Source of the DNA: a virus
Lineage: Duplodnaviria > Heunggongvirae > Uroviricota > Caudoviricetes
DNA length: 18,745 bases
Strand: one strand, 5' to 3'
IMG/VR virus record: IMGVR_UViG_2563366948_000001
Coordinates: 1-18,745 of that record
Below the pieces are notes generated by a model. It saw only the letters and a list, made by a program, of their open reading frames with translations, was not told where the DNA came from and searched no databases. Of this stretch, positions 1,285-18,745 are shown in pieces. Both the position numbers and the translations under genes were made by a program. Within the stretch, counting starts at the first letter, position 1. Each line of letters begins with the position of its first letter.

Positions 1285-1330
1285 AGGTTGCTCCGGGCTA
1301 TGAAATAGAAAAATGAATCCGTTGAAGCCT

Positions 1331-2489: not shown

Positions 2490-2685
2490 TTCTGATCCTC
2501 TTCAAAAGGCTACCTGTTACTGGTCGATTTAAGTCAACCTTTACCGCTGATTCGTGGAACAGATATTCTCTTCCATCCTTAACCGGAGGAGGGAATATCC
2601 TGCACTCGCGTACCCATCGACGAACTGTTTCAAGGCTTCTTGGGCGTCGTTGGCGTGCGTTCCACTCCTGAAGTGTCAAGTACAT
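2467..2685 (-). CDS. xis: Lambda excisionase
   Basis: 72 aa MYLTLQEWNARQRRPRSLETVRRWVRECRIFPPP..., recognised as lambda Xis; 3' end overlaps int start as in lambda. Confidence 0.9.
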   Translation of the reverse strand: MYLTLQEWNARQRRPRSLETVRRWVRECRIFPPPVKDGREYLFHESAVKVDLNRPVTGSLLKRIRNGKKAKS

Positions 2686-2798
2686 CGCAAAGTCTCCGCA
2701 ATTACACGCAAGAAAAAACCGCCATCAGGCGGCTTGGTGTTCTTTCAGTTCTTCAATTCGAATATTGGTTACATTGTTTTCATATATGAATAAATAAA

Positions 2799-2978
2799 TT
2801 AGCTTTTTTCGTTGCCTTCGCGTTCTTTATTAATTTTGACAAACTTGTTTTTACCACGCTCTCCAAATGCGTCTTTAGAGTCGTTGTATCCGCAATCGCA
2901 GCACACATAATCACCAGACCATCCACGCATTGTTTTTTCTTTTGCAATATTTCCAGAACCGCATTTTGGACAAGACAT
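2799..2978 (-). CDS. Small zinc-ribbon protein (CPKC...CCDC), possibly Ea8.5-like
   Basis: Track ORF 2799-3011 starts at TTG; an internal ATG at 2978 is preceded by a GGAGG Shine-Dalgarno, giving 59 aa MSCPKCGSGN... with two Cys pairs. Confidence 0.5.
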   Translation of the reverse strand: MSCPKCGSGNIAKEKTMRGWSGDYVCCDCGYNDSKDAFGERGKNKFVKINKEREGNEKS

Positions 2979-3074
2979 ATCACTACCTCCAAAGCATGAG
3001 TGAGATGACAACGTAACATTGATTGGAGATTAACAATAGATTGCTGATGTAAAAGATATGTATAAGCTTCGCTT

Positions 3075-3728
3075 TCAAAGTGGAGGCTCTGGTAGCGGCA
3101 TCCAGTGAGTTACGTCATCCAAGATATTTCCTGATAAATACGTGAAAGCTCTATATTTTTTGTAATCAATTGGATTTACAACCCAGTTCCAATATGCGGC
3201 CACGATTTCACCTTGACTAAATGCCAGTAACATTTTGGTGTCTTCCGGCATTCGATCACTACAGCTTATCCAACCACCCGGAGTTACCGGAGAGTTGCCG
3301 CGTTCTTTAATGTGCAAGCGAGGCTCACCATCTTTTGGTTCAGGCCACTGGCGTTCCATGTTGATCTTCAATTTATTTTCCATAGCAGCGGTAATTTCAG
3401 CATCACTGATACCAGCACGGCGCTGTGCATCCCACAACAGAAACTGCATATCAGCCCACTCGCTAAGATCGTCTGGTTCGGCTGCGGCTTCCAGTGCCTC
3501 TTTTGAGAGATGTTTCAGCGGACCAATGGGGCCAACGCAGCCAAATGTGGAGTCAGACCATTTGGCATGCTCGTGGCGAATCTGTTCGCGTTCCAGTGAG
3601 GCGAGAGCGATTTTAAATGCTGTAAGCATGTGTGCTTGATCGTTGTCGAGTCCGAATGGCATTTCATCTCGTGCTGACTCAATACTGGTAATCGTATTTT
3701 GTAGCCATTCTTTGGTAAAAGTGCTCAT
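3075..3728 (-). CDS. Phage protein with MazG-like nucleotide pyrophosphohydrolase-type N-terminal region and DUF551-like C-terminal region
   Basis: 217 aa; central EALEAAAEPDDLSEWADMQFLLWDAQRRAGIS...AMENKLKIN resembles MazG-type helices; C-terminal ...THWMPLPEPP resembles the prophage DUF551 motif; ATGA overlap with upstream ORF. Confidence 0.6.
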   Translation of the reverse strand: MSTFTKEWLQNTITSIESARDEMPFGLDNDQAHMLTAFKIALASLEREQIRHEHAKWSDSTFGCVGPIGPLKHLSKEALEAAAEPDDLSEWADMQFLLWDAQRRAGISDAEITAAMENKLKINMERQWPEPKDGEPRLHIKERGNSPVTPGGWISCSDRMPEDTKMLLAFSQGEIVAAYWNWVVNPIDYKKYRAFTYLSGNILDDVTHWMPLPEPPL

Positions 3729-4096
3729 CGTAAAATATCCTCTATACTGGTAAGTCCTTCATTATTTAGCCAGATCATGGCGTCATCCGGCAACTTGCTG
3801 TCTGGTTTGGCGTTTTTGAGAGAGGAACTCAGTCGCTTAATCCACATTGTCACCTCAGTAATGCGCCTGTCTTTGCCTTCCAGCTCAACACGCAGCTTCC
3901 CTACCGTTAGCGCAATATCCTCGTTCTCCTGGTCGCGGCGTTTGATGTATTGCTGGTTTCTTTCCCGTTCATCCAGCAGTTCCAGCACAATCGATGGTGT
4001 TACCAATTCATGGAAAAGGTCTGCGTCAAATCCCCAGTCGTCATGCATTGCCTGCTCTGCCGCTTCACGCAGTGCCTGAGAGTTAATTTCGCTCAC
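3725..4096 (-). CDS. Ea22-like early-left protein (hypothetical)
   Basis: 123 aa; GTG start with AGAGAGG Shine-Dalgarno; GTGA overlap with orf73 stop, so translationally coupled. Confidence 0.55.
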   Translation of the reverse strand: MSEINSQALREAAEQAMHDDWGFDADLFHELVTPSIVLELLDERERNQQYIKRRDQENEDIALTVGKLRVELEGKDRRITEVTMWIKRLSSSLKNAKPDSKLPDDAMIWLNNEGLTSIEDILR

Positions 4097-4314
4097 TTCG
4101 AACCTCTCTGTTTACTGATAAGTTCCAGATCCTCCTGGCAACTTGCACAAGTCCGACAACCCTGAACGGCCAAGCGTCTTCGTTCATCTATCGGATCGCC
4201 ACACTCACAACAATGAGTGGCAGATATAGCCTGGTGGTTCAGGCGGCGCATTTTTATTGCTGTGTTGCGCTGTAATTCTTCAATTTCTGATGCTGAATCA
4301 ATGATGTCTGCCAT
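4093..4314 (-). CDS. TraR/DksA-family C4 zinc-finger protein (lambda Orf73-like)
   Basis: 73 aa with CCECGDPIDERRRLAVQGCRTCASC four-Cys zinc finger typical of TraR/DksA; lambda carries a TraR-like orf73 in this region. Confidence 0.75.
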   Translation of the reverse strand: MADIIDSASEIEELQRNTAIKMRRLNHQAISATHCCECGDPIDERRRLAVQGCRTCASCQEDLELISKQRGSK

Positions 4315-4360
4315 CTTTCATTAATCCCTGAATTGTTGGTTAATACGCTTGAGGGTGAAT

Positions 4361-4390
4361 GCGAATAATAAAAAAGGAGCCTGTAGCTCC
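4361..4390 (-). terminator. Candidate intrinsic terminator in the leftward operon
   Basis: GGAGC-CTGTA-GCTCC hairpin (4376-4390) followed on the minus strand by TTTTTTATTATT (4361-4375). Confidence 0.4.
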
Positions 4391-4412
4391 ATGATGATTT
4401 TGTTTTTCATGC

Positions 4413-4694
4413 TCACCGTTCCTTAAAGACGCCGTTTAACATGCCGATCGCCAGGCTTAAATGAGTCGGTGTGAATCCCATCAGCGTTACCGTTTCGCGG
4501 TGCTTCTTCAGTACGCTACGGCAAATGTCATCGACGTTTTTATCCGGAAACTGCTGTCTGGCTTTTTTGATTTCAGAATTAGCCTGACGGGCAATGCTGC
4601 GAAGGGCGTTTTCTTGCTGAGGTGTCACTGAACAAGCCCCATGTCGGCAAGCATAAGCACACAGAATATGAAGCCCGCTGCCAGGAAAATGCAT
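4413..4694 (-). CDS. Small early-left hypothetical protein (lambda b-region family; start uncertain)
   Basis: 93-aa ORF; no clear Shine-Dalgarno at the ATG; an in-frame GTG with upstream GGGG would give 71 aa. Confidence 0.5.
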   Translation of the reverse strand: MHFPGSGLHILCAYACRHGACSVTPQQENALRSIARQANSEIKKARQQFPDKNVDDICRSVLKKHRETVTLMGFTPTHLSLAIGMLNGVFKER

Positions 4695-4704
4695 TCAGTG
4701 GTTG

Positions 4705-4896
4705 TCATACCTGGTCTCTCTCATCTGCTTCTGCTTTCGCCACCATCATTTCCAGCTTTTGTGAAAGGGATGCGGCTAACGTATGAAATTCTTCGTCTGT
4801 TTCTACTGGTATTGGCACAAACCTGACTCCAATTTGAGCGAGGCTATGTGCCATCTCGATACTCGTTCTTAACTCAACGGGAGATGCTTTGTGCAT
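4705..4896 (-). CDS. Lambda Orf63-like protein
   Basis: 63 aa [30 protein letters not shown]..., recognised as lambda orf63 family; a G9 run immediately upstream serves as Shine-Dalgarno. Confidence 0.7.
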   Translation of the reverse strand: MHKASPVELRTSIEMAHSLAQIGVRFVPIPVETDEEFHTLAASLSQKLEMMVAKAEADERDQV

Positions 4897-5054
4897 ACAG
4901 CCCCCCCCCGTTTATTATTTATCTCCTCAGCCAGCCGCTGTGCTTTCAGGGGATTTCGGATAACAGAAAGGCCGGGAAATACCCAGCCTCGCTTTGTAAC
5001 GGAGTAGACGAAAGTGATTGCGCCTACCCGGATATTATCGTGAGGATGCGTCAT
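4869..5054 (-). CDS. Lambda Orf60a-like protein
   Basis: Track ORF to 5060; the ATG at 5054 overlaps the exo stop (ATGA) and gives 61 aa [19 protein letters not shown]... Confidence 0.65.
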
Positions 5055-5731
5055 CGCCATTGCTCCCCAAATACAAAACCAATTTCAGCCAGTGCCTCGT
5101 CCATTTTTTCGATGAACTCCGGCACCATCTCGTCAAAACTCGCCATGTACTTTTCATCCCGCTCAACCACGACATAATGCAGTCCTTCACGCTTCATACG
5201 CGGGTCATAGTTGGCAAAGTACCAGGCATCTTTTCGCGTCACCCACATGCTGTACTGCACCTGGGCCATGTAAGCCGACTTTATGGCCTCGAAACCACCG
5301 AGCCGGAATTTCATGAAATCCCGGGAGGTAAACGGGCATTTCAGCTCAAGGCCATTGCCGTCACTGCATAAACCATCGGGAGAGCAGGCGGTGCGCATAC
5401 TTTCGTCGCGATAGATGATCGGGGATTCAATAACATTTACGCCGGAAGTGAACTCAAACAGGGTTCTGGCGTCGTTCTCGTACTGTTTTCCCCAGGCCAG
5501 CGCTTTAGCGTTAACTTCCGGAGCCACACCGGTGCAAACCTCAGCTAGCAGGGTGTGGAAGTAGGACATTTTCATGTCAGGCCACTTCTTTCCTGATCGG
5601 GGCTTTGCTATCACGTTGTGAACTTCTGAAGCGGTGATGACGCCGAGCCGTAATTTGTGCCATGCATCATCCCCCTGTTCGACAGCTCTCACGTCGATCC
5701 CGGTACGCTGCAGGATAATGTCCGGTGTCAT
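5051..5731 (-). CDS. exo: Lambda exonuclease (Red-alpha)
   Basis: 226 aa [65 protein letters not shown]..., recognised as lambda Exo; AAGGTGG Shine-Dalgarno. Confidence 0.95.
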
Positions 5732-5772
5732 GCTGCCACCTTCTGCTCAGTGGCTTTCTGTTTCAGGAAACC
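5728..5772 (-). pseudogene. bet: bet (Red-beta) 3' remnant: last ~14 codons and stop only
   Basis: Minus-strand reading ends ...[14 protein letters not shown], matching the lambda Bet C-terminus; upstream residues do not match Bet. Confidence 0.7.
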
Positions 5773-5776
5773 GAAT

Positions 5777-6028
5777 TTTGCAGGGTGGGCTAACGATATC
5801 CGTCTGATGCGTGAACGTGACGGCCGTAACCACCGCGACATGTGCGTGCTGTTCCGCTGGGCATGCCAGGACAACTTCTGGTCCGGTAACGTGCTAAGTC
5901 CGGCCAAACTCCGCGACAAGTGGACCCAACTCGAAATCAACCGTAACAAGCAACAGGCTGGCGTGACAGCCGGAAAATCAAAACTCGACCTGACAAACAC
6001 TGACTGGATTTACGGGGTGGATTTATGA
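5777..6028 (+). pseudogene. O: Replication initiator O, C-terminal ~83 codons only (no start, no ori iterons)
   Basis: FAGWANDIRLMRERDGRNHRDMCVLFRWACQDNFWSGNVLSPAKLRDKWTQLEINRNKQQAGV...LDLTNTDWIYGVDL matches the lambda O C-terminus; stop overlaps P start (ATGA). Confidence 0.8.
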
Positions 6029-6726
6029 AAAACATCGCCGCACAGATGGTTAACTTTGACCGTGAGCAGATGCGCCGGATCGCCAACAACATGCCGGAAC
6101 AGTACGACGAAAAGCCGCAGGTACAACAGGTAGCGCAGATCATCAATGGTGTGTTCAGCCAGTTACTGGCAACTTTCCCGGCGAGCCTGGCTAACCGGGA
6201 CCAGAACGAACTGAACGAAATCCGCCGCCAGTGGGTTCTGGCTTTCCGGGAAAACGGGATCACCACGATGGAACAGGTTAACGCAGGAATGCGCGTAGCC
6301 CGTCGGCAGAATCGACCATTCCTGCCATCACCCGGGCAGTTTGTTGCCTGGTGCCGGGAAGAAGCATCCGTTACCGCCGGGCTGCCAAACGCCAGCGAGC
6401 TGGTTGATATGGTTTACGAGTATTGCCGGAAACGTGGCCTGTATCCGGATGCAGAGTCTTATCCGTGGAAATCAAACGCGCACTACTGGCTGGTTACCAA
6501 CCTGTATCAGAACATGCGGGCCAATGCGCTGACTGATGCGGAATTACGGCGCAAGGCTGCCGATGAACTGGCCTGTATGACAGCGCGAATTAACCGTGGT
6601 GAGGCGATACCTGAACCAGTAAAACAACTTCCTGTTATGGGCGGGAGACCGCTTAATCGTGTTCAGGCTCTGGCGAAGATCGCAGAAATCAAAGCGAAGT
6701 TTGGGCTGAAAGGAGCAAGTGTATGA
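6025..6726 (+). CDS. P: Lambda replication protein P (DnaB helicase loader)
   Basis: 233 aa MKNIAAQMVNFDREQMRRIANNMPEQYDEKPQVQQVAQIINGVFSQLLATFPASLANRDQNELNEIRRQW..., recognised as lambda P. Confidence 0.95.
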   Translation: MKNIAAQMVNFDREQMRRIANNMPEQYDEKPQVQQVAQIINGVFSQLLATFPASLANRDQNELNEIRRQWVLAFRENGITTMEQVNAGMRVARRQNRPFLPSPGQFVAWCREEASVTAGLPNASELVDMVYEYCRKRGLYPDAESYPWKSNAHYWLVTNLYQNMRANALTDAELRRKAADELACMTARINRGEAIPEPVKQLPVMGGRPLNRVQALAKIAEIKAKFGLKGASV

Positions 6727-6896
6727 CGGGCAAAGAGGCAATTATTCATTATCTGGAGACGCACAAGAGCTTCTGTGCGCCGGACGTTGCTGTGACAACA
6801 GGTGTGACATTAACCAGCATAAATCAGGCTGCGGCAAAAATGGCGCGGGCAGGAATCCTGGTCATTGATGGTAAGGTCTGGCGAACGTTTGTTTAA
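6723..6896 (+). pseudogene. ren: ren, truncated (57 codons; N-terminus lambda-like, premature end)
   Basis: ATG overlaps P stop; MTGKEAIIHYLETHKSFCAPDVAVTTGVTLTSINQAAAKMARAGILVIDGKVWRT then FV-stop, whereas lambda Ren is 96 aa. Confidence 0.6.
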
Positions 6897-7042
6897 CGGT
6901 TAGCTACTCAGGATGATAGGGCGGGGCAAGTGAGTATGAAGCGGATTTTAAGGAATGCCATCAGAGTTTGGAAATAAAGTGGGTTTTCTAGTGGCAAGAG
7001 ACTTGATAATATTTAGTTCTTTGAATCCAAGGAGATAGGGTT

Positions 7043-7537
7043 ATGAGAAAATTTATTTTAGCCTTTGTTATAAGTGCCTCGTTTACAGCAAATGCTGGTG
7101 TAGAGAAGTTAGGGCCGTGGATAACAAAGTCTGAGATAAATAAAATGACTGACCAGACTGACTTTGTGGCTCTTAATTTATCACCAGATTCATATAACAA
7201 AGCAGGTACTGATCGTGCAACTTCACTGGTGTTGCGTTGTAGTGATAACAAAACAGATGCCTATTTATCATTCAATGATTATATGGGTTCGGACAACCCA
7301 AGAATTACAGTGCGGTTAGATGGCGGAAAGCCGGTCAAGAGTGTTTGGGGAGGTGGGGAAGGCGGTGATTCTGCATTTGCTCCACAACCAATACAATTTA
7401 TAAAGACCTTGGCTAAGCATAAAAAAGCTATTTTTGGGTTTGAACCTTATGGATCAACTATGCAAGTAGTTGAGTTTGACTTGTCTGAGATTGATAAGGT
7501 TGTGGAAAAAATTTCACAGTCTTGCAATTGGAAATGA
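7043..7537 (+). CDS. Secreted or periplasmic protein of unknown function (moron)
   Basis: 164 aa with signal peptide MRKFILAFVISASFTANA and AxA cleavage motif; strong AAGGAGA Shine-Dalgarno 8 nt upstream; AT-rich codon usage unlike flanking lambda DNA; own terminator. Confidence 0.7.
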   Translation: MRKFILAFVISASFTANAGVEKLGPWITKSEINKMTDQTDFVALNLSPDSYNKAGTDRATSLVLRCSDNKTDAYLSFNDYMGSDNPRITVRLDGGKPVKSVWGGGEGGDSAFAPQPIQFIKTLAKHKKAIFGFEPYGSTMQVVEFDLSEIDKVVEKISQSCNWK

Positions 7538-7554
7538 CAAAAAAATTTCATATG

Positions 7555-7580
7555 AACCCAGTTGGCGCTGGGTTTTTTAT
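7555..7580 (+). terminator. Intrinsic terminator of the secreted-protein gene
   Basis: AACCCAG-TTGGCG-CTGGGTT hairpin followed by TTTTTTATTT, 18 nt after the stop codon. Confidence 0.7.
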
Positions 7581-8174
7581 TTCAGTAGCCAATAATGCAT
7601 TCAAAATCTCTTACTTGAGAAACGGCCTATTTGAGATTTCAGTCGTGGCAGGATGATCAGTTGATTCGAGTATTGACGCATTTGCGTTCGGAGCGATTAC
7701 AGTAGATTGTAAATAATAATGAGAAACACATAGCCACATAGCCACCCCGTGGTATTGAAACCATATAATGTTGGATTTGAAAACAGATCTTTTCCCATGT
7801 ATTAATAACTACATCCCCGCGAGTAATTCAAAAAGGAGGGCCCAATTTTGTCCGAGTTTTTGTATTCCCCCGCATGCCGCTGCGGAGCACTACATCTGAG
7901 TGTCTGACTAGGGGATAAAATTAGACTGGATAGTGAGAAGAAAGTGGCGCGCTAGGCTGTGCCGAGTGCTACCAGTACACCTTGGGGGTGTGCAGCTTTC
8001 GCCGAGACTGTAGTGGGTATCGGTTAATGCACGAAAAACCGAGAGGTCAGACAACCAATTTGCCGTAGGATTGTTTCCGGTGCGATACCGGTCTACTAAC
8101 TGAAAGCAATGCGAAAAAGCATAAACTCGGTCCTTCAGTCGCCCTACACACTATTTACTAAGAAGGGCTGAAGC

Positions 8175-8375
8175 ATGGATACAATTATTACATGGATGGG
8201 AGATCGTCTGTTGGGGGGGACACAAAAATCCGATCTGCGGCAGATGGCGATCACTGGATTAACTTCCGCGATTTGTTCAACAATTTTGTACACTGAAAAA
8301 TTAAAACATGGTGAGCCTATTAACCCAAACGAAGAAGAAAAACTTTATAGGCTTTGGTATGAAGGAAACGCTTGA
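8175..8375 (+). CDS. Small hypothetical protein (66 aa)
   Basis: ORF MDTIITWMGDRLLGG... with GAAGGG Shine-Dalgarno-like motif upstream; no recognisable family. Confidence 0.4.
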   Translation: MDTIITWMGDRLLGGTQKSDLRQMAITGLTSAICSTILYTEKLKHGEPINPNEEEKLYRLWYEGNA

Positions 8376-8581
8376 AAGAATAAAGCACAATTAAAACCTT
8401 TGATTTGCGATAATCAACTTGCCATAATTAAGTAATCGGAGCCTGAACAACTCCGGTGACTTCTGCGCTAAACGGGGACGTTTATGCGCACATACAATCC
8501 AACCTCTCTTCTCCATTCACAGATGCAGAAATGCACCTGCGATATTTTGCATCCAGCGTTTGATCTCTGCGGAGGTGAAGC

Positions 8582-9037
8582 GTGAACCTCCCACAAGATG
8601 GTATCAAATTGCATCGCGGTAACTTCACCGCTATCGGTCGGCAGATCCAGCCTTATCTGGAGGACGGCAAATGCTTTCGTATGGTGCTTAAACCGTGGCG
8701 CGAGAGACGCAGTCTTTCCCAGAATGCACTCAGCCACATGTGGTACAGCGAAATCAGTGAATACCTCATCAGCAGGGGTAAAACGTTCGCCACTCCAGCT
8801 TGGGTAAAAGATGCTCTCAAACACACTTATCTCGGTTATGAAACCAAAGAACTGGTTGATGTCGTAACCGGTGAAATCACCACCATTCAGTCATTACGTC
8901 ATACCTCCAATCTTGATACCGGAGAGATGTATGTCTTCCTGTGTAAGGTTGAAGCCTGGGCGATGAATATTGGCTGCCACCTGACTATTCCGCAGAGCTG
9001 CGAGTTCCAGCTGCTGCGCGACAAGCAGGAGGCGTAA
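8582..9037 (+). CDS. ybcN: NinB-family recombination protein (DLP12 YbcN-like)
   Basis: 151 aa, GTG start with GGAGG Shine-Dalgarno; sequence recognised as YbcN/NinB family ([13 protein letters not shown] motif). Confidence 0.8.
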
Positions 9038-9207
9038 TGGCTACACCGCTTATTCGTGTCATGAACGGACACATCTACAGAGTACCAAATCGTCGTAAGC
9101 GTAAGCCTGAGCTGAAACCATCCGAAATACCAACACTGCTCGGATATACCGCCAGCCTGGTTGATAAAAAATGGTTGCGACTGGCAGCAAGGAGGAATCA
9201 TGGCTGA
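9037..9207 (+). CDS. ninE: NinE-family protein
   Basis: 56 aa [56 protein letters not shown]; start overlaps ybcN stop (TAATG); below track size cutoff. Confidence 0.75.
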   Translation: MATPLIRVMNGHIYRVPNRRKRKPELKPSEIPTLLGYTASLVDKKWLRLAARRNHG

Positions 9208-9490
9208 TTTGAGAAAAGCAGCGCGTGGTCGGGAATGCCAGGTAAGAATCCCTGGCGTATGTAATGGCAACCCTGAAACGTCTGTACTGGCACATATCCG
9301 GCTGACTGGATTGTGCGGCACCGGTACGAAACCGCCAGACCTGATTGCCACCATTGCATGTTCTGCCTGCCACGACGAAATCGACCGCCGCACGCATTTT
9401 GTTGACGCTGGATATGCAAAAGAATGCGCGCTGGAAGGTATGGCGAGAACACAGGTTATCTGGCTGAAAGAGGGGGTTATTAAGGCGTGA
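9200..9490 (+). CDS. ybcO: YbcO-like nin-region protein (Cys-rich, putative metal-binding nuclease-like)
   Basis: 96 aa from ATG at 9200 preceded by AGGAGG; [37 protein letters not shown]...; track ORF extends upstream without a Shine-Dalgarno. Confidence 0.75.
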
Positions 9491-9849
9491 ATACCTACAG
9501 CATCACATTACCCTGGCCTCCGAGCAATAATCGCTATTACCGCCATAATCGCGGGCGCACGCACGTCAGCGCAGAGGGGCAGGCATACCGCGATAACGTC
9601 GCCCGAATCATTAAAAACGCAATGCTGGATATCGGCCTGGCTATGCCTGTGAAAATCCGCATTGAGTGCCACATGCCGGATCGCCGTCGCCGTGACCTGG
9701 ATAATCTGCAAAAAGCCGCTTTTGACGCACTCACTAAAGCAGGTTTCTGGCTGGATGATGCTCAGGTCGTTGATTACCGCGTTGTGAAGATGCCGGTTGT
9801 CAAAGGTGGAAAGCTGGAGCTGACCATCACTGAACTGGGAGATGAATGA
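9487..9849 (+). CDS. rusA: RusA Holliday-junction resolvase
   Basis: 120 aa [42 protein letters not shown]..., recognised as RusA. Confidence 0.9.
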
Positions 9850-9986
9850 TGTTTGAGTTTTATATGGCAGAACTTCTTCGCCACCGCTGGGGGCGTCTGC
9901 GCTTATATCGTTTCCCCGGTTCTGTTTTGACCGATTACCGAATACTGAAGAATTACGCCAAAACCCTGACAGGAGCAGGAGTATGA
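9846..9986 (+). CDS. ylcG: YlcG-like small protein
   Basis: 46 aa [46 protein letters not shown]; start overlaps rusA stop. Confidence 0.55.
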
Positions 9987-10071
9987 AGTCAGAGATAACA
10001 ATCAACTAATACTGTTTCGTTGATTTTTGCTTGTAATTGGCGTTCTGGTCTGATTTTTGTGGAGTAAGTTG

Positions 10072-10455
10072 ATGCGTGATATTCAGATGGTTCTTGAGCG
10101 TTGGGGAGCGTGGGCGGCTAATAATCATGAAGATGTGACCTGGTCGTCCATTGCCGCCGGTTTTAAGGGATTAATTACTTCAAAAGTAAAATCTCGCCCG
10201 CAATGTTGTGACGATGACGCGATGATCATTTGCGGGTGCATGGCCCGTCTGAAAAAGAACAACAGCGATTTGCACGATTTATTAGTAGATTATTATGTAG
10301 TCGGTATGACATTCATGTCACTGGCAGGTAAGCATTGCTGCTCTGATGGTTATATCGGGAAAAGGTTACAGAAGGCTGAGGGCATAATTGAAGGGATGTT
10401 AATGGCATTAGATATCCGGTTAGAGATGGATATCGTTGTTAATAACTCTAATTAA
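10072..10455 (+). CDS. quuD: Late-gene antiterminator Q (DLP12 QuuD / phage-21-type Q)
   Basis: 127 aa [34 protein letters not shown]... with Cys-rich zinc-binding region; GGAG Shine-Dalgarno; track ORF starts at an upstream TTG. Confidence 0.85.
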
Positions 10456-10469
10456 TATGCCAATTGTTT

Positions 10470-10643
10470 ACTAAAAATTATTAAAAATGGGGCGTTGAAA
10501 CGCCCCCAAAAATAAAGGGTAATATATAACAGAAGGTTTATATAGTTAGAAGCAAGGTTGTGCTTCTAAAGGAAGTGGCTTGAGGGAGCCACTTATATGT
10601 TGGGGAGGCAAAGCCTCCCACAACATATCTTTTAGTAATCAAA
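10470..10643 (-). ncRNA. Porin gene 3' UTR with three stem-loops plus terminator; candidate IpeX-like regulatory RNA
   Basis: Hairpins at 10548-10565, 10575-10592 and 10602-10618; terminator hairpin GGGGCG-TTGAAA-CGCCCC (10489-10506) followed on the minus strand by ATTTTTAATAATTTTT; in DLP12, ipeX maps between the nmpC stop and its terminator. Confidence 0.35.
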
Positions 10644-11726
10644 TTAGAACTGGTAAACCATACCTACAGCAACGATATCATCGGTAGCAACGCCAGATGC
10701 TTTCGTGAAATCGCTCTTATCAATCAGGTTGATTTTGTAATCAACAAAAGTGGACATATTTTTGTTGAAGTAATAGGTTGCACCTACATCAATATATTCA
10801 ACCAGGTCCTGATCACCCCACGCACCCAAGTCTTTTCCTTTAGATTGCAGGTAAGCAACGGACGGACGCAGACCGAAGTCGAACTGATATTGTGCAACTA
10901 CTTCGAAGTTTTGTGCTTTGTTGGCAATATGGTTATTACCAAAAACAGTCATGTTCTGGGTTTCAGAATAGGTGGTAGCCAGATAGATGTTGTTCGCATC
11001 ATATTTCAGACCAGCTGCCCATACTTCAGCATTTTGACCAGATGCATTCAGGCTGTTGTTACCGTAGATAACCTGATTATTAGTGCGGTCAGATTTAGCA
11101 TAGGTTGCACCTACACCGAATCCTTCATACTCATAAGTAGTGGAGAAACCGAAACCATCACCATTAGCTTCAGTTACGTCAGTGCGGTCATTTTTACCCT
11201 GATACTGAGCAGCAAAGTTCAGACCATCAACCAGACCAAAGAAGTCGTTGTTACGATAAGTTGCAACACCAGTGGTGCGACCAGTCATGAACACATCTGT
11301 TTGGGTCCAGGTATCGCCACCGAATTCTGGCAGAACGTCAGTCCACGCACCGATGTCGTATGCTACACCGTAGTTACGGCCGTAATCGATTGAGCCGTAG
11401 TCACCGAATTTCAGGCCTGCAAATGCAAGACGGGTTTTGTCTTTGGAGGAACCTTGAGATTCAGCGCGGTTGCCTTTGAATTCATATTCCCACTGACCGA
11501 AACCAGTCAGTTGATCGTTGATTTGGGTTTCACCTTTGAAGCCAAGACGGGCATAAGTAGTATCACCATCATCTGCATCATTAGAGGAGAAGTAGTGCTT
11601 AGCATTAACTTTCCCGTACAGATCCAGCTTGTTACTGTCTTTATTATAAATTTCAGCTGCCTGAGCAGACATCGCCATCAGTACTGATGCAGCTACAGCA
11701 GAAATTGCCACTGTTAATTTTTTCAT
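10644..11726 (-). CDS. nmpC: Phage-encoded general porin (OmpC/OmpF family; NmpC/Lc-like), apparently intact
   Basis: 360 aa with signal peptide [23 protein letters not shown], porin N-terminus [16 protein letters not shown] and C-terminal ...VYQF; sits between Q and the lysis genes on the opposite strand. Confidence 0.9.
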
Positions 11727-12154
11727 CGTGAGCCCTTTTTTTTGAACTATTATTAAAAAATGATGTCACTGCGCGATAAATATTCATCTAATCAATGTGA
11801 TTATTTCAAGATGTAAGTTTTGGTTTCTCGTTTGATTTGTGAAGTAGATCTCTATTTTTATCTGAACTTTTTTCTATCGAATCCTATTCATAGCTCTTGG
11901 CTGAATAAAAATAAATCTATTAGCCAATTTATATTAACGGCTGTTATTTATAAGTGCTCTATAATTTGAAGGTTCAATTTAAATCGGCTAAAAATAACAC
12001 TGGAAATTATTTGTTGGTTATTTGTTGAGATTTGCTTATGTATTTGTAGTGGTGTTTTCAATACTCGGTAGCATTCTCGCAAATATCATTTAGTGGTTTA
12101 CGTACGTAAAAAATTGGTTATGCTGTTAAGAGTGGTTACTTCGTCACACAGCTT
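11727..12154 (-). promoter_or_regulatory. AT-rich porin upstream region (promoter or regulator-binding candidate)
   Basis: ~430 bp strongly AT-rich with phased A/T tracts immediately upstream of the porin start; no ORF. Confidence 0.35.
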
Positions 12155-12187
12155 AAACCCGCCGTCGAGCGGGTTTTTCCATTTTTT
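12155..12187 (+). terminator. Candidate intrinsic terminator upstream of the lysis cassette
   Basis: AAACCCGC-CGTCGA-GCGGGTTT hairpin followed by TTCCATTTTTT; position computed from the holin ATG at 12300. Confidence 0.45.
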
Positions 12188-12299
12188 GAGTCTCGATATT
12201 AGCTGATAACCCAATACCTGAGTTATTCACTGACTCCGAGTCTGTTACGTTTCGTAGTATTCCCTCAATTTACACCCGCTTTGTCTGCGAGGTGGGGTT

Positions 12300-12515
12300 A
12301 TGAAATCCATGGATAAGTTAACAACGGGTGTCGCCTATGGCACCTCAGCAGGTAGTGCCGGGTACTGGTTTTTACAGCTGCTAGATAAAGTCACGCCCTC
12401 ACAGTGGGCGGCAATTGGAGTGCTGGGTAGCCTGGTATTTGGCCTGCTGACGTACCTGACAAACCTTTATTTCAAGATTAAAGAAGATAAGCGTAAGGCT
12501 GCGAGAGGTGAATAA
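12300..12515 (+). CDS. essD: Class II pinholin (S21-type) with dual-start motif
   Basis: 71 aa [29 protein letters not shown]...; Met1-Lys-Ser-Met4 dual start typical of S21 antiholin/holin; two TM segments. Confidence 0.9.
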
Positions 12516-13012
12516 TGTCGCCATCATTACGCAAGGCTGTAGCAGCTGCTATTGGTGGTGGGGCTGTTGCCATAGCGTCTGTGCTCATCACTGGTCCGAG
12601 TGGTGACGATGGTCTGGAAGGTGTCAGCTACATACCATATAAAGATATTGTTGGTGTATGGACTGTATGTCACGGGCATACAGGAAAAGACATCATGCTC
12701 GGTAAAACGTATACCAAAGCAGAATGCAAAGCACTCTTGAATAAAGACCTTGCCACTGTCGCCAGACAAATTAACCCGTACATCAAAGTCGATATACCGG
12801 AAACAACGCGCGGCGCTCTTTACTCATTCGTTTACAACGTGGGTGCTGGCAATTTCAGAACATCGACGCTTCTTCGCAAAATAAACCAGGGCGATATCAA
12901 AGGCGCATGTGATCAGCTACGTCGCTGGACATATGCTGGCGGTAAGCAATGGAAAGGTCTCATGACTCGTCGTGAGATTGAGCGTGAAATCTGTTTGTGG
13001 GGTCAGCAATGA
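12515..13012 (+). CDS. rrrD: SAR endolysin (signal-anchor-release lysozyme, R21-type)
   Basis: 165 aa; N-terminal Gly/Ala-rich weakly hydrophobic SAR segment [20 protein letters not shown], then lysozyme domain; start overlaps holin stop. Confidence 0.9.
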
Positions 13013-13470
13013 ACAGAGTAACCGCGATTATCTCCGCTCTGGTTATCTGCATCATCGTCTGCCTGTCATGGGCTGTTAATCATTACCGTGATAACGCCAT
13101 TACCTACAAAGCCCAGCGCGACAAAAATGCCAGAGAACTGAAGCTGGCGAACGCGGCAATTACTGACATGCAGATGCGTCAGCGTGATGTTGCTGCGCTC
13201 GATGCAAAATACACGAAGGAGTTAGCTGATGCGAAAGCTGAAAATGATGCTCTGCGTGATGATGTTGCCGCTGGTCGTCGTCGGTTGCACATCAAAGCAG
13301 TCTGTCAGTCAGTGCGTGAAGCCACCACCGCCTCCGGCGTGGATAATGCAGCCTCCCCCCGACTGGCAGACACCGCTGAACGGGATTATTTCACCCTCAG
13401 AGAGAGGCTGATCACTATGCAAAAACAACTGGAAGGAACCCAGAAGTATATTAATGAGCAGTGCAGATAG
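13009..13470 (+). CDS. rzpD: Rz i-spanin
   Basis: 153 aa from ATG overlapping the endolysin stop; N-terminal TM segment then coiled-coil-rich periplasmic domain. Confidence 0.85.
13229..13411 (+). CDS. rzoD: Rz1 o-spanin (lipoprotein), embedded in +1 frame within Rz
   Basis: 60 aa [23 protein letters not shown]... with lipobox LVVVGC and proline-rich mature region [15 protein letters not shown]; wholly inside Rz. Confidence 0.8.
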
Positions 13471-13501
13471 AGCTGCCCATATCGATGGGCAACTCATGCA
13501 A

Positions 13502-13795
13502 TTATTGTGAGCAATACACACGCGCTTCCAGCGGAGTATAAATGCCTAAAGTAATAAAACCGAGAAATCCATTTACGAATGTTTGCTGGGTTTCTGTTTT
13601 AACAACATTTTCTGCGCCGCCACAAATTTGGGCTGCATCAACAGTTTTCTCCTGTCCAATTCCCGAAACGAAGAAATGATGGGTGATGGTTTCCTTTGGT
13701 GTTACTGCTGTCGGTTTGTTTCCAACAGTAAACGTCTGTTGAGCACATCCTGTAATAAGCATTGCCAGAGCGGCAGAAAACAACATTTTTTTCAT
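13502..13795 (-). CDS. bor: Bor lipoprotein (serum-resistance, lysogenic conversion)
   Basis: 97 aa MKKMLFSAALAMLITGCAQQTFTVGNKPTAVTPKETITHHFFVSGIGQEK..., recognised as Bor; track ORF extends 16 codons upstream. Confidence 0.9.
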   Translation of the reverse strand: MKKMLFSAALAMLITGCAQQTFTVGNKPTAVTPKETITHHFFVSGIGQEKTVDAAQICGGAENVVKTETQQTFVNGFLGFITLGIYTPLEARVYCSQ

Positions 13796-13961
13796 CTTAT
13801 TATCCTGCATTGTTAAAAACGGCAGAATCCTATGTGACAACAATTAAACGATAGTTAAATGGATTGATGAAAATTAAAACTATATAGGTGGATGCTCAGC
13901 CTATTGGAGGAGGGGGGCACTCAGAATCCTGTGGAATGAAATAAACCGCTCTATCTGTCCA

Positions 13962-14186
13962 TTACCCTTTTAGCTGCGCTGTATCGTCGCCGTATTCCCG
14001 CATTAACCATGACCGTAGCCCGACGGGGAATTCCTTCTGCGTGAGTGTGCGGGAATAATCAAAAACGATGCACACCGGGTTTTTACCGCGTTTATGGTTC
14101 GCGGGGGTGTCCCTCATGCTCGCCAGTCCTGTGCGGGGGTGGAAGAAACAGGACGTGTATTCAGGTCTGTGTGACTGTGGTCGCAA
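13962..14186 (-). CDS. Hypothetical protein near the prophage late-region right end (YbcV-like?)
   Basis: 74-aa ORF MRPQSHRPEYTSCFFHPRTGLASMRDTPANHKRG...; weak recollection only. Confidence 0.3.
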   Translation of the reverse strand: MRPQSHRPEYTSCFFHPRTGLASMRDTPANHKRGKNPVCIVFDYSRTLTQKEFPVGLRSWLMREYGDDTAQLKG

Positions 14187-14271
14187 GACTTTTGTCGTTC
14201 AGCTATTAAATCCCATTACGAAGTAGACCAGAACGGCCAACGGGTCCTTTCCGGCGATCCGACAGGTTACG

Positions 14272-14283
14272 GGGCGGCGACCT
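14272..14283. other. cos: cosN cohesive-end sequence GGGCGGCGACCT; cosQ/cosB flank it within about 14200-14460
   Basis: Sequence CAGGTTACG-GGGCGGCGACCT-CGCGGGTTTTCGCTATTTATGAAAATTTTCCGG matches the lambda cos junction; lies 189 nt upstream of the nu1 ATG as in lambda. Confidence 0.85.
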
Positions 14284-14460
14284 CGCGGGTTTTCGCTATT
14301 TATGAAAATTTTCCGGTTTAAGGTGTTTCCGTTCTTCTTCGTCGTAACTTAATGTTTTTATTTAAAATACCCCCTGAAAAGAAAGGAAACGACAGGTGCT
14401 GAAAGCGGGCTTTTTGGCCTTTGTCGTTTCCTTTCTCTGTTTTTGGCCGTGGAATGAACA

Positions 14461-15915
14461 ATGGAAGTCAACAAAAAGCAGCTGGCTGACATTTTCGGTG
14501 CGAGTATCCGTACCATTCAGAACTGGCAGGAACAGGGAATGCCCGTTCTGCGAGGCGGTGGCAAGGGTAATGAGGTGCTTTATGACTCTGCCGCCGTTAT
14601 AAAATGGTATGCCGAAAGGGATGCTGAAATTGAGAACGAAAAGCTGCGCCGGGAGGTTGAAGAACTGCGCCAGGCCAGCGAGGCAGATCTCCAGCCAGGG
14701 ACTATTGAGTACGAACGCCATCGACTTACGCGTGCGCAGGCCGACGCACAGGAACTGAAGAATGCCAGAGACTCAGCTGAAGTGGTGGAAACCGCATTCT
14801 GTACTTTCGTGCTGTCGCGGATCGCAGGTGAAATTGCCAGTATTCTCGACGGGATCCCCCTGTCGGTGCAGCGGCGTTTTCCGGAACTGGAAAACCGACA
14901 TGTTGATTTCCTGAAACGGGATATCATCAAAGCCATGAACAAAGCAGCCGCGCTGGATGAACTGATAACCGAATCCCATCTCGGCAAGGAGCTGCTGGAA
15001 AAAGTCGAGCTGACGGAGGATAACGCCAGCAAACTGGAGGAGTTTTCGAAAGAGTGGCAGGACGCTAACGATAAGTGGAATGCCATGTGGGGCGTCAAAA
15101 TTGAGCAGACCAAAGACGGCAAACATTATGTCGCGGGTATTGGCCTCAGCATGGAGGACACGGAAGAAGGCAAGCTGAGCCAGTTTCTGGTTGCCGCTAA
15201 CCGTATCGCGTTTATTGACCCGGCAAACGGGAATGAAACGCCGATGTTTGTGGCGCAGGGCAATCAGATATTTATGAACGACGTGTTCCTGAAGCGCCTG
15301 ACGGCCCCGACCATTACCAGTGGTGGAAATCCACCGGCATTTTCCCTGACATCAGACGGAAAGCTGACCGCTAAAAATGCGGATATCAGTGGCAGTGTGA
15401 ATGCGAACGCCGGGACGCTCAACAATGTCACGGTAAATGAAAACTGTACGATTAAGGGCATGCTGGAGGCGACTCAGGTCAGAGGTGACTTCGTTAAAGC
15501 TGTATCCAAATCATTCCCGAAACAGGCTGGTACGTGGGGTAATACGGAAACACCAAACGGGACGGTTACAGTCACCATCAGCGATGATCATAACTTTGAC
15601 CGTCAAATCATTATTCCGCCCATTATCTTTAACGGAATAGCGTATAGCGATCCGGGAAGTGGTAATAACCCGGGAGGTACAAGATACACGGGTTATGGTT
15701 TTGAAGTTCGCAAAAACGGTGTATTAATCGCATCCAGAGAAACTAAAGGGGCCATTCCCGGTAGCTACAGTGCGGTTATTGATATGCCGAGTGGCAGGGG
15801 AAGCGTCACTCTGGAGTTTAAGGTTTTCCATAAAGGCAATCAGCGGGCAGGTAATATCACCGACTGTACGGTGATTGTGACCAAAAAAGCCGCTTCCGGC
15901 ATCAGTATTCGTTGA
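14461..15915 (+). CDS. In-frame fusion: terminase small subunit Nu1 (residues 1-169) joined to the C-terminal ~315 residues of tail-tip protein J
   Basis: N-terminus [34 protein letters not shown]...AALDELI is lambda Nu1; from [21 protein letters not shown]... onward it matches the lambda J C-terminal region; single 484-aa ORF. Confidence 0.85.
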
Positions 15916-15984
15916 AATTGTTATAACCCATATAAGGGCACCAGAAATGGTGCCTTTTTTATTGCAGAAAAGCGAGAGGTAATT

Positions 15985-16353
15985 ATGCGTAAACTTTATG
16001 CCGCCATTTTTTCCGCAGCCATTTGTCTGGCCGTATCCGGTGCGCCTGCATGGGCATCTGAACATCAGTCCACGCTGAGCGCGGGGTATCTTCATGCCTC
16101 GACGAACGTTCCCGGCAGCGATGATCTGAACGGGATTAACGTGAAATACCGTTATGAGTTTACGGACACACTGGGGCTGGTGACGTCATTCAGCTATGCA
16201 GGAGACAAGAATCGCCAGCTGACCCGTTACAGCGATATCCGCTGGCATGAAGATTCCGTTCGTAACCGCTGGTTCAGCGTAATGGCGGGGCCGTCTGTGC
16301 GCGTGAATGAATGGTTCAGCGCGTATGCGATGGCGGGTACCTTCTGCCCGTAA
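15985..16353 (+). pseudogene. lom: lom (Ail/Lom-family outer-membrane protein), truncated after codon 118
   Basis: MRKLYAAIFSAAICLAVSGAPAWASEHQSTLSAGYLHAS... matches lambda Lom up to ...WFSAYAMAG, then TFCP-stop; lambda Lom is ~206 aa. Confidence 0.8.
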
Positions 16354-17539
16354 GGTGAATGGTAAGGCGCTTTCAGCGGATATAACACTGACGCCGAAAG
16401 ATATTGGTACGCTTAACTCAACAACAATGTCATTCAGCGGTGGTGCTGGTTGGTTCAAATTAGCAACGGTAACCATGCCACAGGCGAGTTCTGTTGTTTC
16501 AATTACGTTGATTGGTGGCGCGGGATTTAACGTGGGGTCACCTCAACAGGCAGGTATATCTGAACTTGTTTTGCGTGCAGGTAATGGTAATCCGAAGGGG
16601 ATTACTGGTGCTTTATGGCAGCGCACATCGACAGGGTTTACAAATTTTGCCTGGGTCAATACATCTGGTGATACTTACGATATTTACGTTGCAATCGGAA
16701 ATTATGCGACTGGTGTAAATATTCAATGGGATTATACCAGTAATGCCAGCGTGACGATTCATACGTCACCAGCATATTCTGCTAATAAGCCGGAAGGGTT
16801 AACGGACGGTACAGTTTATTCACTCTATACGCCATCAGAGCAGTTTTATCCGCCTGGCGCACCAATCCCGTGGCCATCAGATACCGTTCCGTCTGGCTAT
16901 GCCCTGATGCAAGGGCAGACTTTTGACAAATCTGCATACCCGAAACTTGCAGCCGCTTATCCGTCAGGCGTGATCCCTGATATGCGTGGCTGGACGATTA
17001 AGGGCAAACCCGCCAGTGGTCGTGCCGTATTGTCTCAGGAACAGGACGGCATTAAATCGCACACCCACAGCGCCAGCGCATCCAGTACGGATTTGGGGAC
17101 GAAAAACACATCGTCGTTTGATTACGGAACCAAATCCACGAATAACACCGGGGCGCATACCCATAGTATTAGCGGGACTGCAAATAGTGCCGGTGCGCAC
17201 CAACACAAGAGTTCCGGTGCATTTGGTGGCACGAACACGAGCATTTTCCCTAATGGTTATACCGCGATTTCAAATCTAAGCGCGGGGATTATGAGCACAA
17301 CAAGCGGTAGTGGCCAGACTCGTAATGCAGGGAAGACATCATCAGATGGTGCTCATACCCACTCGCTGTCCGGCACTGCTGCAAGCGCAGGCGCACACGC
17401 ACATACTGTCGGTATTGGTGCTCATACGCACTCCGTTGCGATTGGCTCACATGGACACACCATCACCGTTAACGCTGCTGGTAACGCGGAAAACACCGTC
17501 AAAAACATCGCATTTAACTATATTGTGAGGCTTGCATAA
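16339..17539 (+). pseudogene. stf: Side tail fibre Stf, C-terminal ~400 codons only
   Basis: Open frame continuous with track ORF 16307-17539; contains tail-fibre-type His-rich repeats (GAHTHS, GAHQHK, GAHAHT, GSHGHT); no credible start; abuts truncated lom. Confidence 0.75.
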
Positions 17540-18120
17540 TGGCATTCAGAATGAGTGAACAAGCACGGACCATAAAAATTTATAATCTGCTGGCCGGAAC
17601 TAATGAATTTATTGGTGAAGGTGACGCATATATTCCGCCTCATACAGGTCTGCCAGCAAACAGTACCGATATTGCACCGCCAGATATTCCGGCTGGCTTC
17701 GTGGCTGTTTTCAACAGTGATGAGTCATCGTGGCATCTCGTTGAAGATCATCGGGGTAAAACGGTTTATGACGTGGCTTCCGGCGATGCGTTATTTATTT
17801 CTGAACTCGGTCCGTTACCGGAAAATGTTACCTGGTTATCGCCGGGAGGGGAGTTTCAGAAGTGGAACGGCACAGCCTGGGTGAAGGATACGGAAGCAGA
17901 AAAACTGTTCCGGATCCGGGAGGCGGAAGAAACAAAAAACAGCCTGATGCAGGTAGCCAGTGAGCATATAGCGCCGCTTCAGGATGCTGTGGATCTGGAA
18001 ATCGCAACGGAGGAAGAAACCTTGTTGCTGGAAGCCTGGAAAAAGTATCGGGTGTTGCTGAACCGTGTTGATACATCAACTGCACCGGATATTGAATGGC
18101 CAGTAGCACCTATAGGGTAA
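17539..18120 (+). CDS. tfa: Tail fibre assembly protein Tfa
   Basis: 193 aa [54 protein letters not shown]..., recognised as lambda Tfa; start overlaps stf stop. Confidence 0.9.
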
Positions 18121-18200
18121 ATTCGTAATGATTACCTAAATACGTTATTCTTTTGTTAAAAAAGTGATTTTGCTATAGGTAGGGAGTATGTTCTTGGATT

Positions 18201-18237
18201 AAGAATAAAAAATCGCCATGAAAGAGCTTCATGGCGA
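18201..18237 (-). terminator. Intrinsic terminator facing tfa (3' end of a leftward transcription unit now interrupted by IS1)
   Basis: 10-bp stem TCGCCATGAA / TTCATGGCGA with loop AGAGC (18213-18237), followed on the minus strand by TTTTTTATTCTT. Confidence 0.5.
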
Positions 18238-18256
18238 GTACGGTAATGACTCCAAC

Positions 18257-18634
18257 TTATTGATAGTGTTTTATGTTCAGATAATGCCCGATGACTTTGT
18301 CATGCAGCTCCACCGATTTTGAGAACGACAGCGACTTCCGTCCCAGCCGTGCCAGGTGCTGCCTCAGATTCAGGTTATGCCGCTCAATTCGCTGCGTATA
18401 TCGCTTGCTGATTACGTGCAGCTTTCCCTTCAGGCGGGATTCATACAGCGGCCAGCCATCCGTCATCCATATCACCACGTCAAAGGGTGACAGCAGGCTC
18501 ATAAGACGCCCCAGCGTCGCCATAGTGCGTTCACCGAATACGTGCGCAACAACCGTCTTCCGGAGACTGTCATACGCGTAAAACAGCCAGCGCTGGCGCG
18601 ATTTAGCCCCGACATAGCCCCACTGTTCGTCCAT
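18257..18634 (-). CDS. insB: IS1 transposase InsB segment (made in vivo as InsAB' by -1 frameshift)
   Basis: 125-aa [51 protein letters not shown]..., recognised as IS1 InsB. Confidence 0.9.
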
Positions 18635-18678
18635 TTCCGCGCAGACGATGACGTCACTGCCCGGCTGTATGCGCGAGG

Positions 18679-18745
18679 TTACCGACTGCGGCCTGAGTTT
18701 TTTAAGTGACGTAAAATCGTGTTGAGGCCAACGCCCATAATGCGG
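18679..18745 (-). CDS. insA: IS1 InsA, 3' portion only (5' end beyond window)
   Basis: Minus-strand reading ...[18 protein letters not shown]-stop with stop at 18679-18681; contains the slippery A6C site. Confidence 0.8.

Follow-up and report, generated by a model that had tools for sequence, protein, structure and literature searches.

Probable decay scar with an in-frame nu1::J chimera in a lambdoid prophage remnant of Escherichia coli, and a recurrent deletion hot zone in nu1

The window analyzed here, a stretch of 18,745 nucleotides (positions 1 to 18,745 of IMG/VR record IMGVR_UViG_2563366948_000001), carries an ORF at 14461-15915 (+) that starts with ATG, contains no internal stop, and encodes a 484-aa protein in which the N-terminal part of lambda Nu1 runs in frame into the C-terminal part of J. 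Very probably, this chimera is a decay scar left by illegitimate recombination in a defective lambdoid prophage, the frame having been kept by chance, and not a designed gene. The left breakpoint of the deletion lies at nu1 694-703 (lambda coordinates), a hot zone in which deletion ends recur among lambdoid remnants of E. coli.

BLAST against phage lambda aligned lambda 1-697 to window 14272-14967 (98.4% identity) and lambda 17967-18474 to window 14964-15471 (92.9% identity), and the two alignments overlap in four bases, GATA, which are common to nu1 (lambda 694-697) and J (lambda 17967-17970). In a three-way alignment at the junction, the bases flanking this crossover differ between nu1 and J on both sides (with the slash marking the end of GATA, nu1 reads ...GAACTGATA/CCGGGG, J reads ...GGCAAGATA/ACCGAA, and the window reads ...GAACTGATAACCGAA). 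The codon phase at GATA is the same in both genes, the crossover falling in codons 168-169 of nu1 and codons 821-822 of J. Because the alignments overlap in GATA in the same codon phase, residues 1-169 of the product are those of Nu1, J takes over from its residue 822, and the J-derived part of the 484-aa product amounts to 315 residues. An earlier note, made from the sequence of the window, had proposed an in-frame chimera of Nu1 residues 1-169 with about 315 residues of J, a junction at about 14967/14968, and a loss of roughly 17 kb from A through most of J. The chimera is borne out by alignment, codon phase, Pfam, and PDB matches, with both halves of the junction region matching nu1 and J, no stop, and the frame kept; the junction was placed correctly to the base, within the 4-bp ambiguity of GATA; and the loss is 17,273 bp in lambda coordinates (lambda 698-17970).

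Pfam search located Phage_Nu1 at chimera residues 1-164, covering all 164 profile positions (E 1e-99), Phage_Tail_Tip (PF09327) at residues 192-319, and Ig_GpJ_C (PF12421) at residues 348-483. In the PDB sequence search, the Nu1 entries 6hn7 and 1j9i aligned to chimera residues 1-98 and 1-68, respectively, and 8iyk (J residues 821-1131) aligned to residues 168-483. The earlier note had taken residues 1-169 to be the winged-helix cosB-binding domain; this domain is indeed present, but it comprises only Nu1 residues 1-68 (PDB 1j9i), and the 169 retained residues extend over the self-association region and the greater part of the gpA-binding region as well; Nu1 is short of just its last 12 residues (170-181). 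Past lambda 18474, the J sequence switches to another receptor-binding allele, which is 99.6% identical to J of PhiR49_1 and also close to that of many Stx phages. BLAST against lambda found no sequence of gene A in the window, and the other tail genes (H, M, L, K, and I) are absent beside 'J in the window. Compared with the Nu1 family (PF07471), the chimera possesses the winged helix and the family sequence and lacks the complete C-terminal tail and an adjacent A; compared with lambda J, it possesses the C-terminal fibre and receptor-binding domains and lacks the N-terminal 820 residues. The chimera can be counted neither among working Nu1 proteins, given the missing C-terminal tail and the lack of a gpA partner, nor among working J proteins, given the missing N-terminal part and the absence of tail genes alongside.

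The features of the remnant are listed in Table 1. Its left end is an exact match to the attL core, from which window 1331-2772 corresponds to lambda 27724-29165 at 99% identity, followed by lambda-like int, xis, and exo. At the bet::O junction a second deletion has removed lambda 32070-39320, and with it gam, kil, cIII, N, rexAB, cI, cro, cII, and the ori iterons as well as pL/pR and the N-terminal part of O. Rightward of this junction are P, nin-region genes including rusA, Q, a porin gene on the opposite strand, S, R, Rz/Rz1, and bor. The cos region, located immediately 5' of nu1', shows six differences, including a 1-bp deletion, between window 14272-14460 and lambda 1-190, and it looks intact. 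Window 4461-18745 has a 100% identical counterpart in locus L003 (GCA_000408345.1; scaffold of 3.1 Mb). A search of the L003 segment between IS1 and ybhB-bioA for an attR core was negative; the attL core is the only att core found. As compared with an inducible prophage, the repressor/operator, N, and the origin are deleted and one attachment site core is found. The remnant is thus a heavily decayed, non-inducible lambdoid prophage at att-lambda of E. coli, which is not capable of replication, normal excision, or switching on its own late genes, because the immunity region, early region, ori, and attR core are missing. Three deletions are present in this one remnant: nu1::J, bet::O, and lom::stf.

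Table 1. Features of the prophage remnant in the window (positions in the 18,745-nucleotide stretch)
Feature	Position	Strand	Basis and remarks
ybhC	1-1284		Window begins in ybhC
attL core, GCTTTTTTATACTAA	1331-1345	+	Exact core match; adjoins ybhC; left end of the remnant
bet (lambda 32069)::O (lambda 39321) junction	5764-5772		BLAST alignments overlap by 9 bases
Q, late antiterminator, 127 aa	10072-10455	+	ORF; Phage_antitermQ by Pfam in L003 at 5612-5995
cos region	14260-14460	+	cosN nick 14271/14272; GGGCGGCGACCT begins at 14272; cosB reaches the nu1 start
nu1' segment, codons 1-169	14461-14967	+	Native start codon; BLAST, Pfam, PDB
Crossover GATA, 4 bp	14964-14967	+	Common to nu1 and J; BLAST overlap
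'J segment, residue 822 to stop	14968-15915	+	Tail-tip fibre and C-terminal receptor-binding domain; non-lambda allele
Terminator-like hairpin	15934-15957	+	10-pair stem, then TTTATTG; just 3' of the chimera stop; terminator scan
Truncated lom, 122 codons	15985-16353	+	ORF list
lom::stf deletion junction, out of frame	~16338/16339		Collinearity with PhiR49_1 stops at 16338
stf C-terminal part and tfa, retained	16307-18120	+	ORFs; lambda 21238-22535; Collar and Caudo_TAP in L003
IS1	18242-18745	-	Inverted repeat at 18242; DDE_Tnp_IS1 gene; caps the right end of the window

The earlier note expected late transcription to yield the fusion protein. This expectation finds no support in the remnant, whose own induction circuit is lost and in which a consensus scan detected no promoter-like site between bor and nu1. 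The chimera could be reached by late transcription only through the Q protein, and nothing known in the remnant drives Q, which would have to come otherwise, e.g., from a co-resident phage. With a late operon that the remnant cannot turn on by itself, the chimera is probably not expressed, except when a matching Q is supplied by another phage.

The window derives from a scaffold-level assembly, which is the sole fact in favor of considering the junction as an assembly or scaffolding artefact. However, other genomes, in which the earlier note had suggested looking for the junction, contain it as well: the same junction and the identical 484-aa protein recur on at least 14 contigs, which come from isolates in NCBI, metagenomes in ENA, and Logan assemblies and of which one has a Qin-type context. 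Four shared bases are too few to mislead an assembler. The chance that the junction is an artefact is practically nil. NCBI holds the exact chimera protein under several accessions as "DUF1983 domain-containing protein". The exact 35-base junction had no match in GTDB with one genome per species, where a lineage-specific junction would escape, and megablast found none in the RefSeq complete E. coli genomes; the junction of the window is confined to draft, GenBank-only, and metagenome assemblies.

A protein search revealed in-frame Nu1::J fusions in E. coli (P0002 and P0005-P0017) at no fewer than eight J positions, comprising at least eight different Nu1(1-169)::J fusions and one Nu1(~131)::J fusion. 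A protein search sees in-frame products only, and therefore a census independent of frame was made, based on loci gathered by DNA patterns and BLAST; it comprises 30 junction types for which both ends map to lambda genes. Eight of the 30 are in frame by coordinates and L082 was added by direct reading of the sequence, corresponding to ~30%. Among the junctions at nu1 694-703 found regardless of frame, only that of the window is in frame: lambda coordinates put L022, L119, L045/REL606, L024, and L032 out of frame, the junction sequence does so for L011, and in L023, L033, and L162, whose partner is no mapped lambda gene, the nu1 frame hits a stop within 3-21 codons. According to this census, the in-frame match of the window looks like a one-in-three chance outcome. 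Because about 30% of the junction types are in frame and the siblings are mostly out of frame, the open frame is not evidence of function, and the meaning that the earlier note attached to the preserved frame is not upheld, 8-9 of 30 being the chance level.

A different explanation would be that the chimera is a selected, working protein that protects its host against lambda-like phages. Two versions can be predicted: a dominant-negative small terminase, which binds cosB and pairs with incoming Nu1 but cannot recruit gpA, or a J receptor-binding fragment, which disturbs tail assembly or adsorption. The intact ORF with its native start, the DNA-binding and self-association regions, and the complete receptor-binding domain are consistent with such a protein, as are the other in-frame fusions, i.e., the at least eight Nu1(1-169)::J and one Nu1(~131)::J in E. 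coli and K-12 StfQ, in which the first three codons of A are likewise joined in frame to stf. However, the list of Nu1::J fusions comes from a search able to find in-frame fusions only, while the frame-independent census is at chance level and the same-zone junctions found regardless of frame, including that of E. coli B, are mostly out of frame. P0001 and P0002 both remain open despite a 6% difference at the protein level, although divergence between copies could be imported from working J genes by recombination. The identical ORF on at least 14 contigs, with the terminator-like hairpin directly after it, would also suit a maintained gene; on the other side, no promoter-like site was found 5' of nu1 in the consensus scan, the induction circuit is lost, and P0011 is a copy truncated at the C-terminus. 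We regard selection for a protective protein as quite unlikely, and prefer to interpret the chimera as a decay scar whose frame was kept by chance.

Unexpectedly, the left breakpoint recurs. The sequence at nu1 694-703 (GATACCGGGG) is abutted by at least 19 different sequences, from A, B, Z, lom, stf, and nine J sites, in several prophage contexts, E. coli B (REL606/BL21) among them. An IMG/VR pattern consisting of nu1 up to position 697, with the intact next base excluded, found nu1 joined to A-2489, Z-8065, J-17306, lom, and three tail-fibre-region sequences, and the protein list provided seven further J partner positions. In complete genomes, the partners of the nu1 zone are a diverged J allele (L011), a portal gene (H181), J-16142 (E. 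coli B), and, in the complete genome EC130, a tail-fibre fragment. As a check on query bias, we used 116 IMG/VR loci found only via the first 29 bases of nu1. In these unanchored loci, ~31 junction types start within the first 6.4 kb, and for four of them the left end is at 697-699; other left ends are also common to different partners (425/427, 880/880, 2268/2271, and 2359/2362). By hand count, 10 endpoint pairs in these 116 loci are no more than 3 bp apart, vs. ~0.5 expected for uniform ends. A 300-bp probe (lambda 548-847), for which the match is that of the best copy per record, matched fully in 3753 of 4073 RefSeq complete E. coli records and partially in 320 (~8%); in an evenly spaced sample, four of five partial rows end at lambda 697, 697, 699, and 702, and with a wider probe 4 of 11 sampled truncated rows end at 697-703.

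Right ends are reused as well. The J breakpoint of the window (lambda 17967-17970) is the right end of three more deletions, being joined to A 1758 in ACN002/APEC O78 and L015, to C ~5205-5211 in L017, and to the tape-measure gene in P0052. A 300-bp probe over this J breakpoint added nothing on this point, as it gives the best place per record and J alleles diverge at lambda 18002. The right end Z-8063 is used by both L032 and L079, J-17157 by P0008 and L082, and J-17820 by P0005 and L014. One stf right end is common to K-12 Qin, L092, and L121, and a second one (ACCTTCTGCCCG) is found in the lom::stf joint of the window and in the nu1-425 joints of L095/L104. One lom position serves both as the right partner of nu1-697 in L029 and as the left end of the lom::stf deletion of the window.

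Several candidate causes of the hot zone were considered. For 7-12-mers, the nu1 site ranks only at about the 90th percentile in its number of matches to sequence downstream, so that abundant microhomology was rejected as the cause. Comparison by eye with consensus sequences gave no convincing match to Chi, gix/hix, the lambda Int core, loxP, or integron secondary sites, nor to rolling-circle nick sites, the cosN half-site, IS ends, or DnaA/IHF boxes. A literature search on cryptic-prophage nu1/tail deletions and microhomology-mediated deletion in lambdoid defective prophages yielded nothing specific.

The reuse of the nu1 end could in principle reflect one ancestral scar, the flanks of which were later shuffled by recombination, with no hot spot at all. 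Flanks do exchange: the module of the window is present in two upstream contexts (attL/bor-type and Qin-type) with 6-11 differences. In L006, the sequence is 99.8% identical to the window from 14240 on, i.e., the homology begins 32 bp left of the cosN nick, while the upstream flank is 100% identical to K-12 Qin. Because the same module stands behind a Qin-type late region, it appears that the cos-nu1'-'J-lom'-stf-tfa module, or its upstream flank, has been swapped between prophages by homologous recombination near cos, in line with experiments in which the recombination junctions between phage and prophage were concentrated beside cos (PMC3945230). Hot-zone junctions sit behind at least five different upstream contexts, and since the module of the window is also found behind the late region of L006, this diversity alone is weak evidence on the number of events. 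However, homologous exchange cannot alter the sequence abutting the junction, and at least 19 sequences abut nu1 694-703; K-12 Qin and DLP12 keep nu1 sequence past 703 and thus are not descendants of such a scar; and any later deletion starting again at precisely the old junction would in turn presuppose a hot spot. A single shuffled scar is highly improbable. One lineage with nested deletions was likewise rejected as the sole explanation, in view of the at least five upstream contexts and the K-12 copies extending past the zone.

The nu1-697::J-17967 junction itself is also found with other J alleles and other late-region contexts (L156 and L158), L158 and L160 being in Qin-type contexts. In L156 and L158, the J side is 7-8% different from the window, starting 18 bp from the junction, which suggests that the same junction was formed independently, or else very tight recombination.

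Illegitimate recombination in the 4-bp GATA of nu1 and J deleted 17,273 bp, a stretch reaching from the end of nu1 to J codon 821 inclusive; still in place are cos, the nu1 start, the C-terminal part of J, lom', stf, and tfa. Because the left breakpoint at nu1 694-703 recurs and is not random, the first step was probably a break or stall that depends on the sequence of the nu1 site, after which the ends were joined at short homology.

A more specific proposal is a site-specific enzymatic cut in place of generic slippage, with GATACCGG as the putative target in nu1. The classical gyrase model explains illegitimate recombination by a type II topoisomerase that cuts with a 4-bp stagger and then exchanges subunits. 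A 4-bp stagger by gyrase or topoisomerase IV at G/ATA with subunit exchange would lead one to expect identities of exactly 4 bp, and six junction types (nu1::J17302, nu1::J17688, nu1::J17820, nu1::J17967, A1755::J17967, and C5204::J17967) have exactly GATA in common, with both flanks different. However, several junctions of the zone have only 2-3 shared bases, or end at 699 or 701. Alternatively, another nuclease might cut just 5' of CC; the lost sequence starts with CC at many left sites and many sites resemble GGWTAWCC, but this motif was found post hoc. The reuse of sites with different partners, including the lom position that is both a left and a right end, the excess of close endpoint pairs (10 vs. 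~0.5 expected), and the only ~90th-percentile microhomology at the nu1 site also point toward a cut of this kind. Illegitimate recombination by gyrase subunit exchange has been proposed and is mechanistically plausible, interface swapping being biochemically supported (PMC11164529), and quinolone-stabilised gyrase cuts before G (PMC6379681). We consider a site-specific cut rather unlikely on balance. This proposal refines how the scar was formed, not what the scar is.

We tentatively suggest, as a possibility still short of an even chance, that the nu1 codon 169 region (8-10 bp) and a few similar sites, e.g., J 17967, are sequence-specific fragile sites at which an enzymatic break repeatedly and independently deletes head and tail genes. 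The break could come from a type II topoisomerase cutting with a 4-bp stagger or from a nuclease acting 5' of CC.

Cryptic lambdoid prophages that possess cos, a nu1 homologue, lysis genes, and tail-fibre genes without the head/tail block are textbook knowledge (Qin and DLP12). The closest sibling of the window's scar in a well-known strain is nu1-699::J-16142 of REL606 and BL21. In this DLP12-like remnant of E. coli B, a "terminase small subunit" gene is followed by a J pseudogene; as in the window, the left break lies in the same nu1 zone (lambda 699), the join to J is direct, and cos and lysis genes are kept upstream. Unlike the window, the partner is J-16142 with most of J kept, the locus is DLP12 and not att-lambda, and the junction is out of frame, nu1 reading 22 extra codons into a stop. 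K-12 Qin (nohA-stfQ) and DLP12 (nohD-aaaD-tfaD) likewise contain cos, a nu1 homologue, and tail-fibre genes and have lost the head/tail block. The Qin junction resembles that of the window in following an ATA codon and being in frame, with annotated StfQ beginning at A's own GTG, but its left end is at A codon 3 (lambda 719), its right end is in stf, and no J is left; in DLP12, unlike the window, nohD is intact and the lambda match stops at ~1018, inside A. The DLP12-type A'::'J deletion of APEC O78/ACN002 has the same J breakpoint (lambda 17967-17970) with GATA microhomology, whereas it keeps nu1 whole, begins in A (lambda 1758), and breaks the frame; between the J alleles of ACN002 and the window there is a 6.5% difference. 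At the DNA level, lambda nu1 and J are 98% and 93% (J 17967-18474) identical to the window, which differs from lambda in having Nu1 minus its last 12 residues and gpA, and J minus residues 1-821 with an allele of the PhiR49_1/Stx-phage type. The Rpp-like decoys of PICIs are dedicated small proteins that pair with the helper's small terminase, encoded by a mobilisable island with its own cos. The likeness of the chimera to these decoys would be one of functional analogy only, its nu1 being 98% lambda and lying in a decayed prophage. Overall, the interpretation of the earlier note is partly supported.

The chimera is a new example of known prophage-decay scars, and its exact protein is already in NCBI. 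By itself it matters little, being a pseudogene-like decay product that bears a normal-looking database name; the reused nu1 breakpoint is the part with possible importance. If a specific break mechanism operates there, prophage domestication would be partly predictable, not random, and the nu1 site would be a convenient natural reporter for illegitimate recombination in vivo. If the fragile sites are true, they would constitute a main, predictable route in E. coli from a lambda-like prophage to a harmless remnant, and such remnants would keep cos, lysis, lom/bor, and tail-fibre genes.

The deletion endpoint in nu1 lies at codons 168-170 (GATACCGGGG; nu1 694-703, which corresponds to window 14964-14973) and is recurrent in E. 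coli prophage remnants. It was compared across the window, the loci L011, L022-L033, L045, L119, L161, and L162, and the in-frame Nu1::J fusion proteins P0005-P0017, and at least 19 different sequences, including that of the E. coli B remnant, were found to abut nu1 694-703 in E. coli prophage remnants. The J endpoint of the window's deletion (lambda 17967; window 14964-14970) also serves as a right end elsewhere, in deletions whose left ends lie within the tape-measure gene, gene A (1758), or gene C (about 5205-5211). The stf end of the lom'::stf joint (ACCTTCTGCCCG) is partnered with nu1-425 in the prophage loci L095/L104, and the lom end of this joint is joined to nu1-697 in locus L029.

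When J was used to probe the genomes of E. coli, many J genes formed a large class in which the alignment with lambda stops at 18002 and the sequences diverge beyond it; this position (about window 14999) is a sharp mosaic boundary in J, about 35 bp to the right of the junction site.

Coordinates of deletion junctions, endpoint copies, and accessory genes
Feature	Location	Strand	Remarks
Second deletion junction, bet (lambda 32069)::O (lambda 39321)	window 5764-5772
ORF, 164 aa	window 7043-7537		between P/ren region and nin genes
OmpC/NmpC-like porin gene, 360 aa	window 10644-11726	minus	between Q and holin gene
lom'::stf deletion junction, endpoints reused	window 16330-16345		compared with L095/L104, L029
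Copies of the J-17967 endpoint	L012 4726; L015 341; L017 6740; protein P0052
nohA/stfQ region, K-12 Qin	MG1655 1635798-1636367		locus L154

With the bet::O deletion, the entire immunity region, the early region, and the origin are gone from the window. The O sequence kept at this joint begins with the 8-mer AACCGAAT, and the J sequence kept at the main junction begins with the identical 8-mer. In the Qin prophage of K-12, the deletion fuses stf in frame to codon 3 (ATA) of terminase gene A, the annotated StfQ starts at the GTG of A, and the NohA reading frame runs on into the A::stf junction.

The placement of the porin gene resembles the arrangement in DLP12 and PA-2-type phages. The 164-aa ORF, which has a signal-peptide-like start and a weak match to VasI, is possibly a cargo gene.

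At the right end, IS1 lies directly 3' of tfa and is followed by an AraC-family regulator gene, IS3-family fragments, and then ybhB-bioA (window 18242-18745; L003, a scaffold identical to window 4461-18745, 13782-17300). No attR core was found in these intervals between IS1 and ybhB-bioA; therefore, the prophage seems to have undergone remodelling at its right end.

Finally, the cos-nu1'-'J-lom'-stf-tfa module of the window (14240-17854) is 99.8% identical to 9780-13394 of the Qin-type locus L006, in which the late region upstream of the module shows 100% identity to K-12 Qin, and the switch point between L006 and the window precedes the cosN nick by 32 bp. Because this module stands behind a Qin-identical late region with the switch so placed, the comparison provides evidence that prophages have exchanged DNA near cos.
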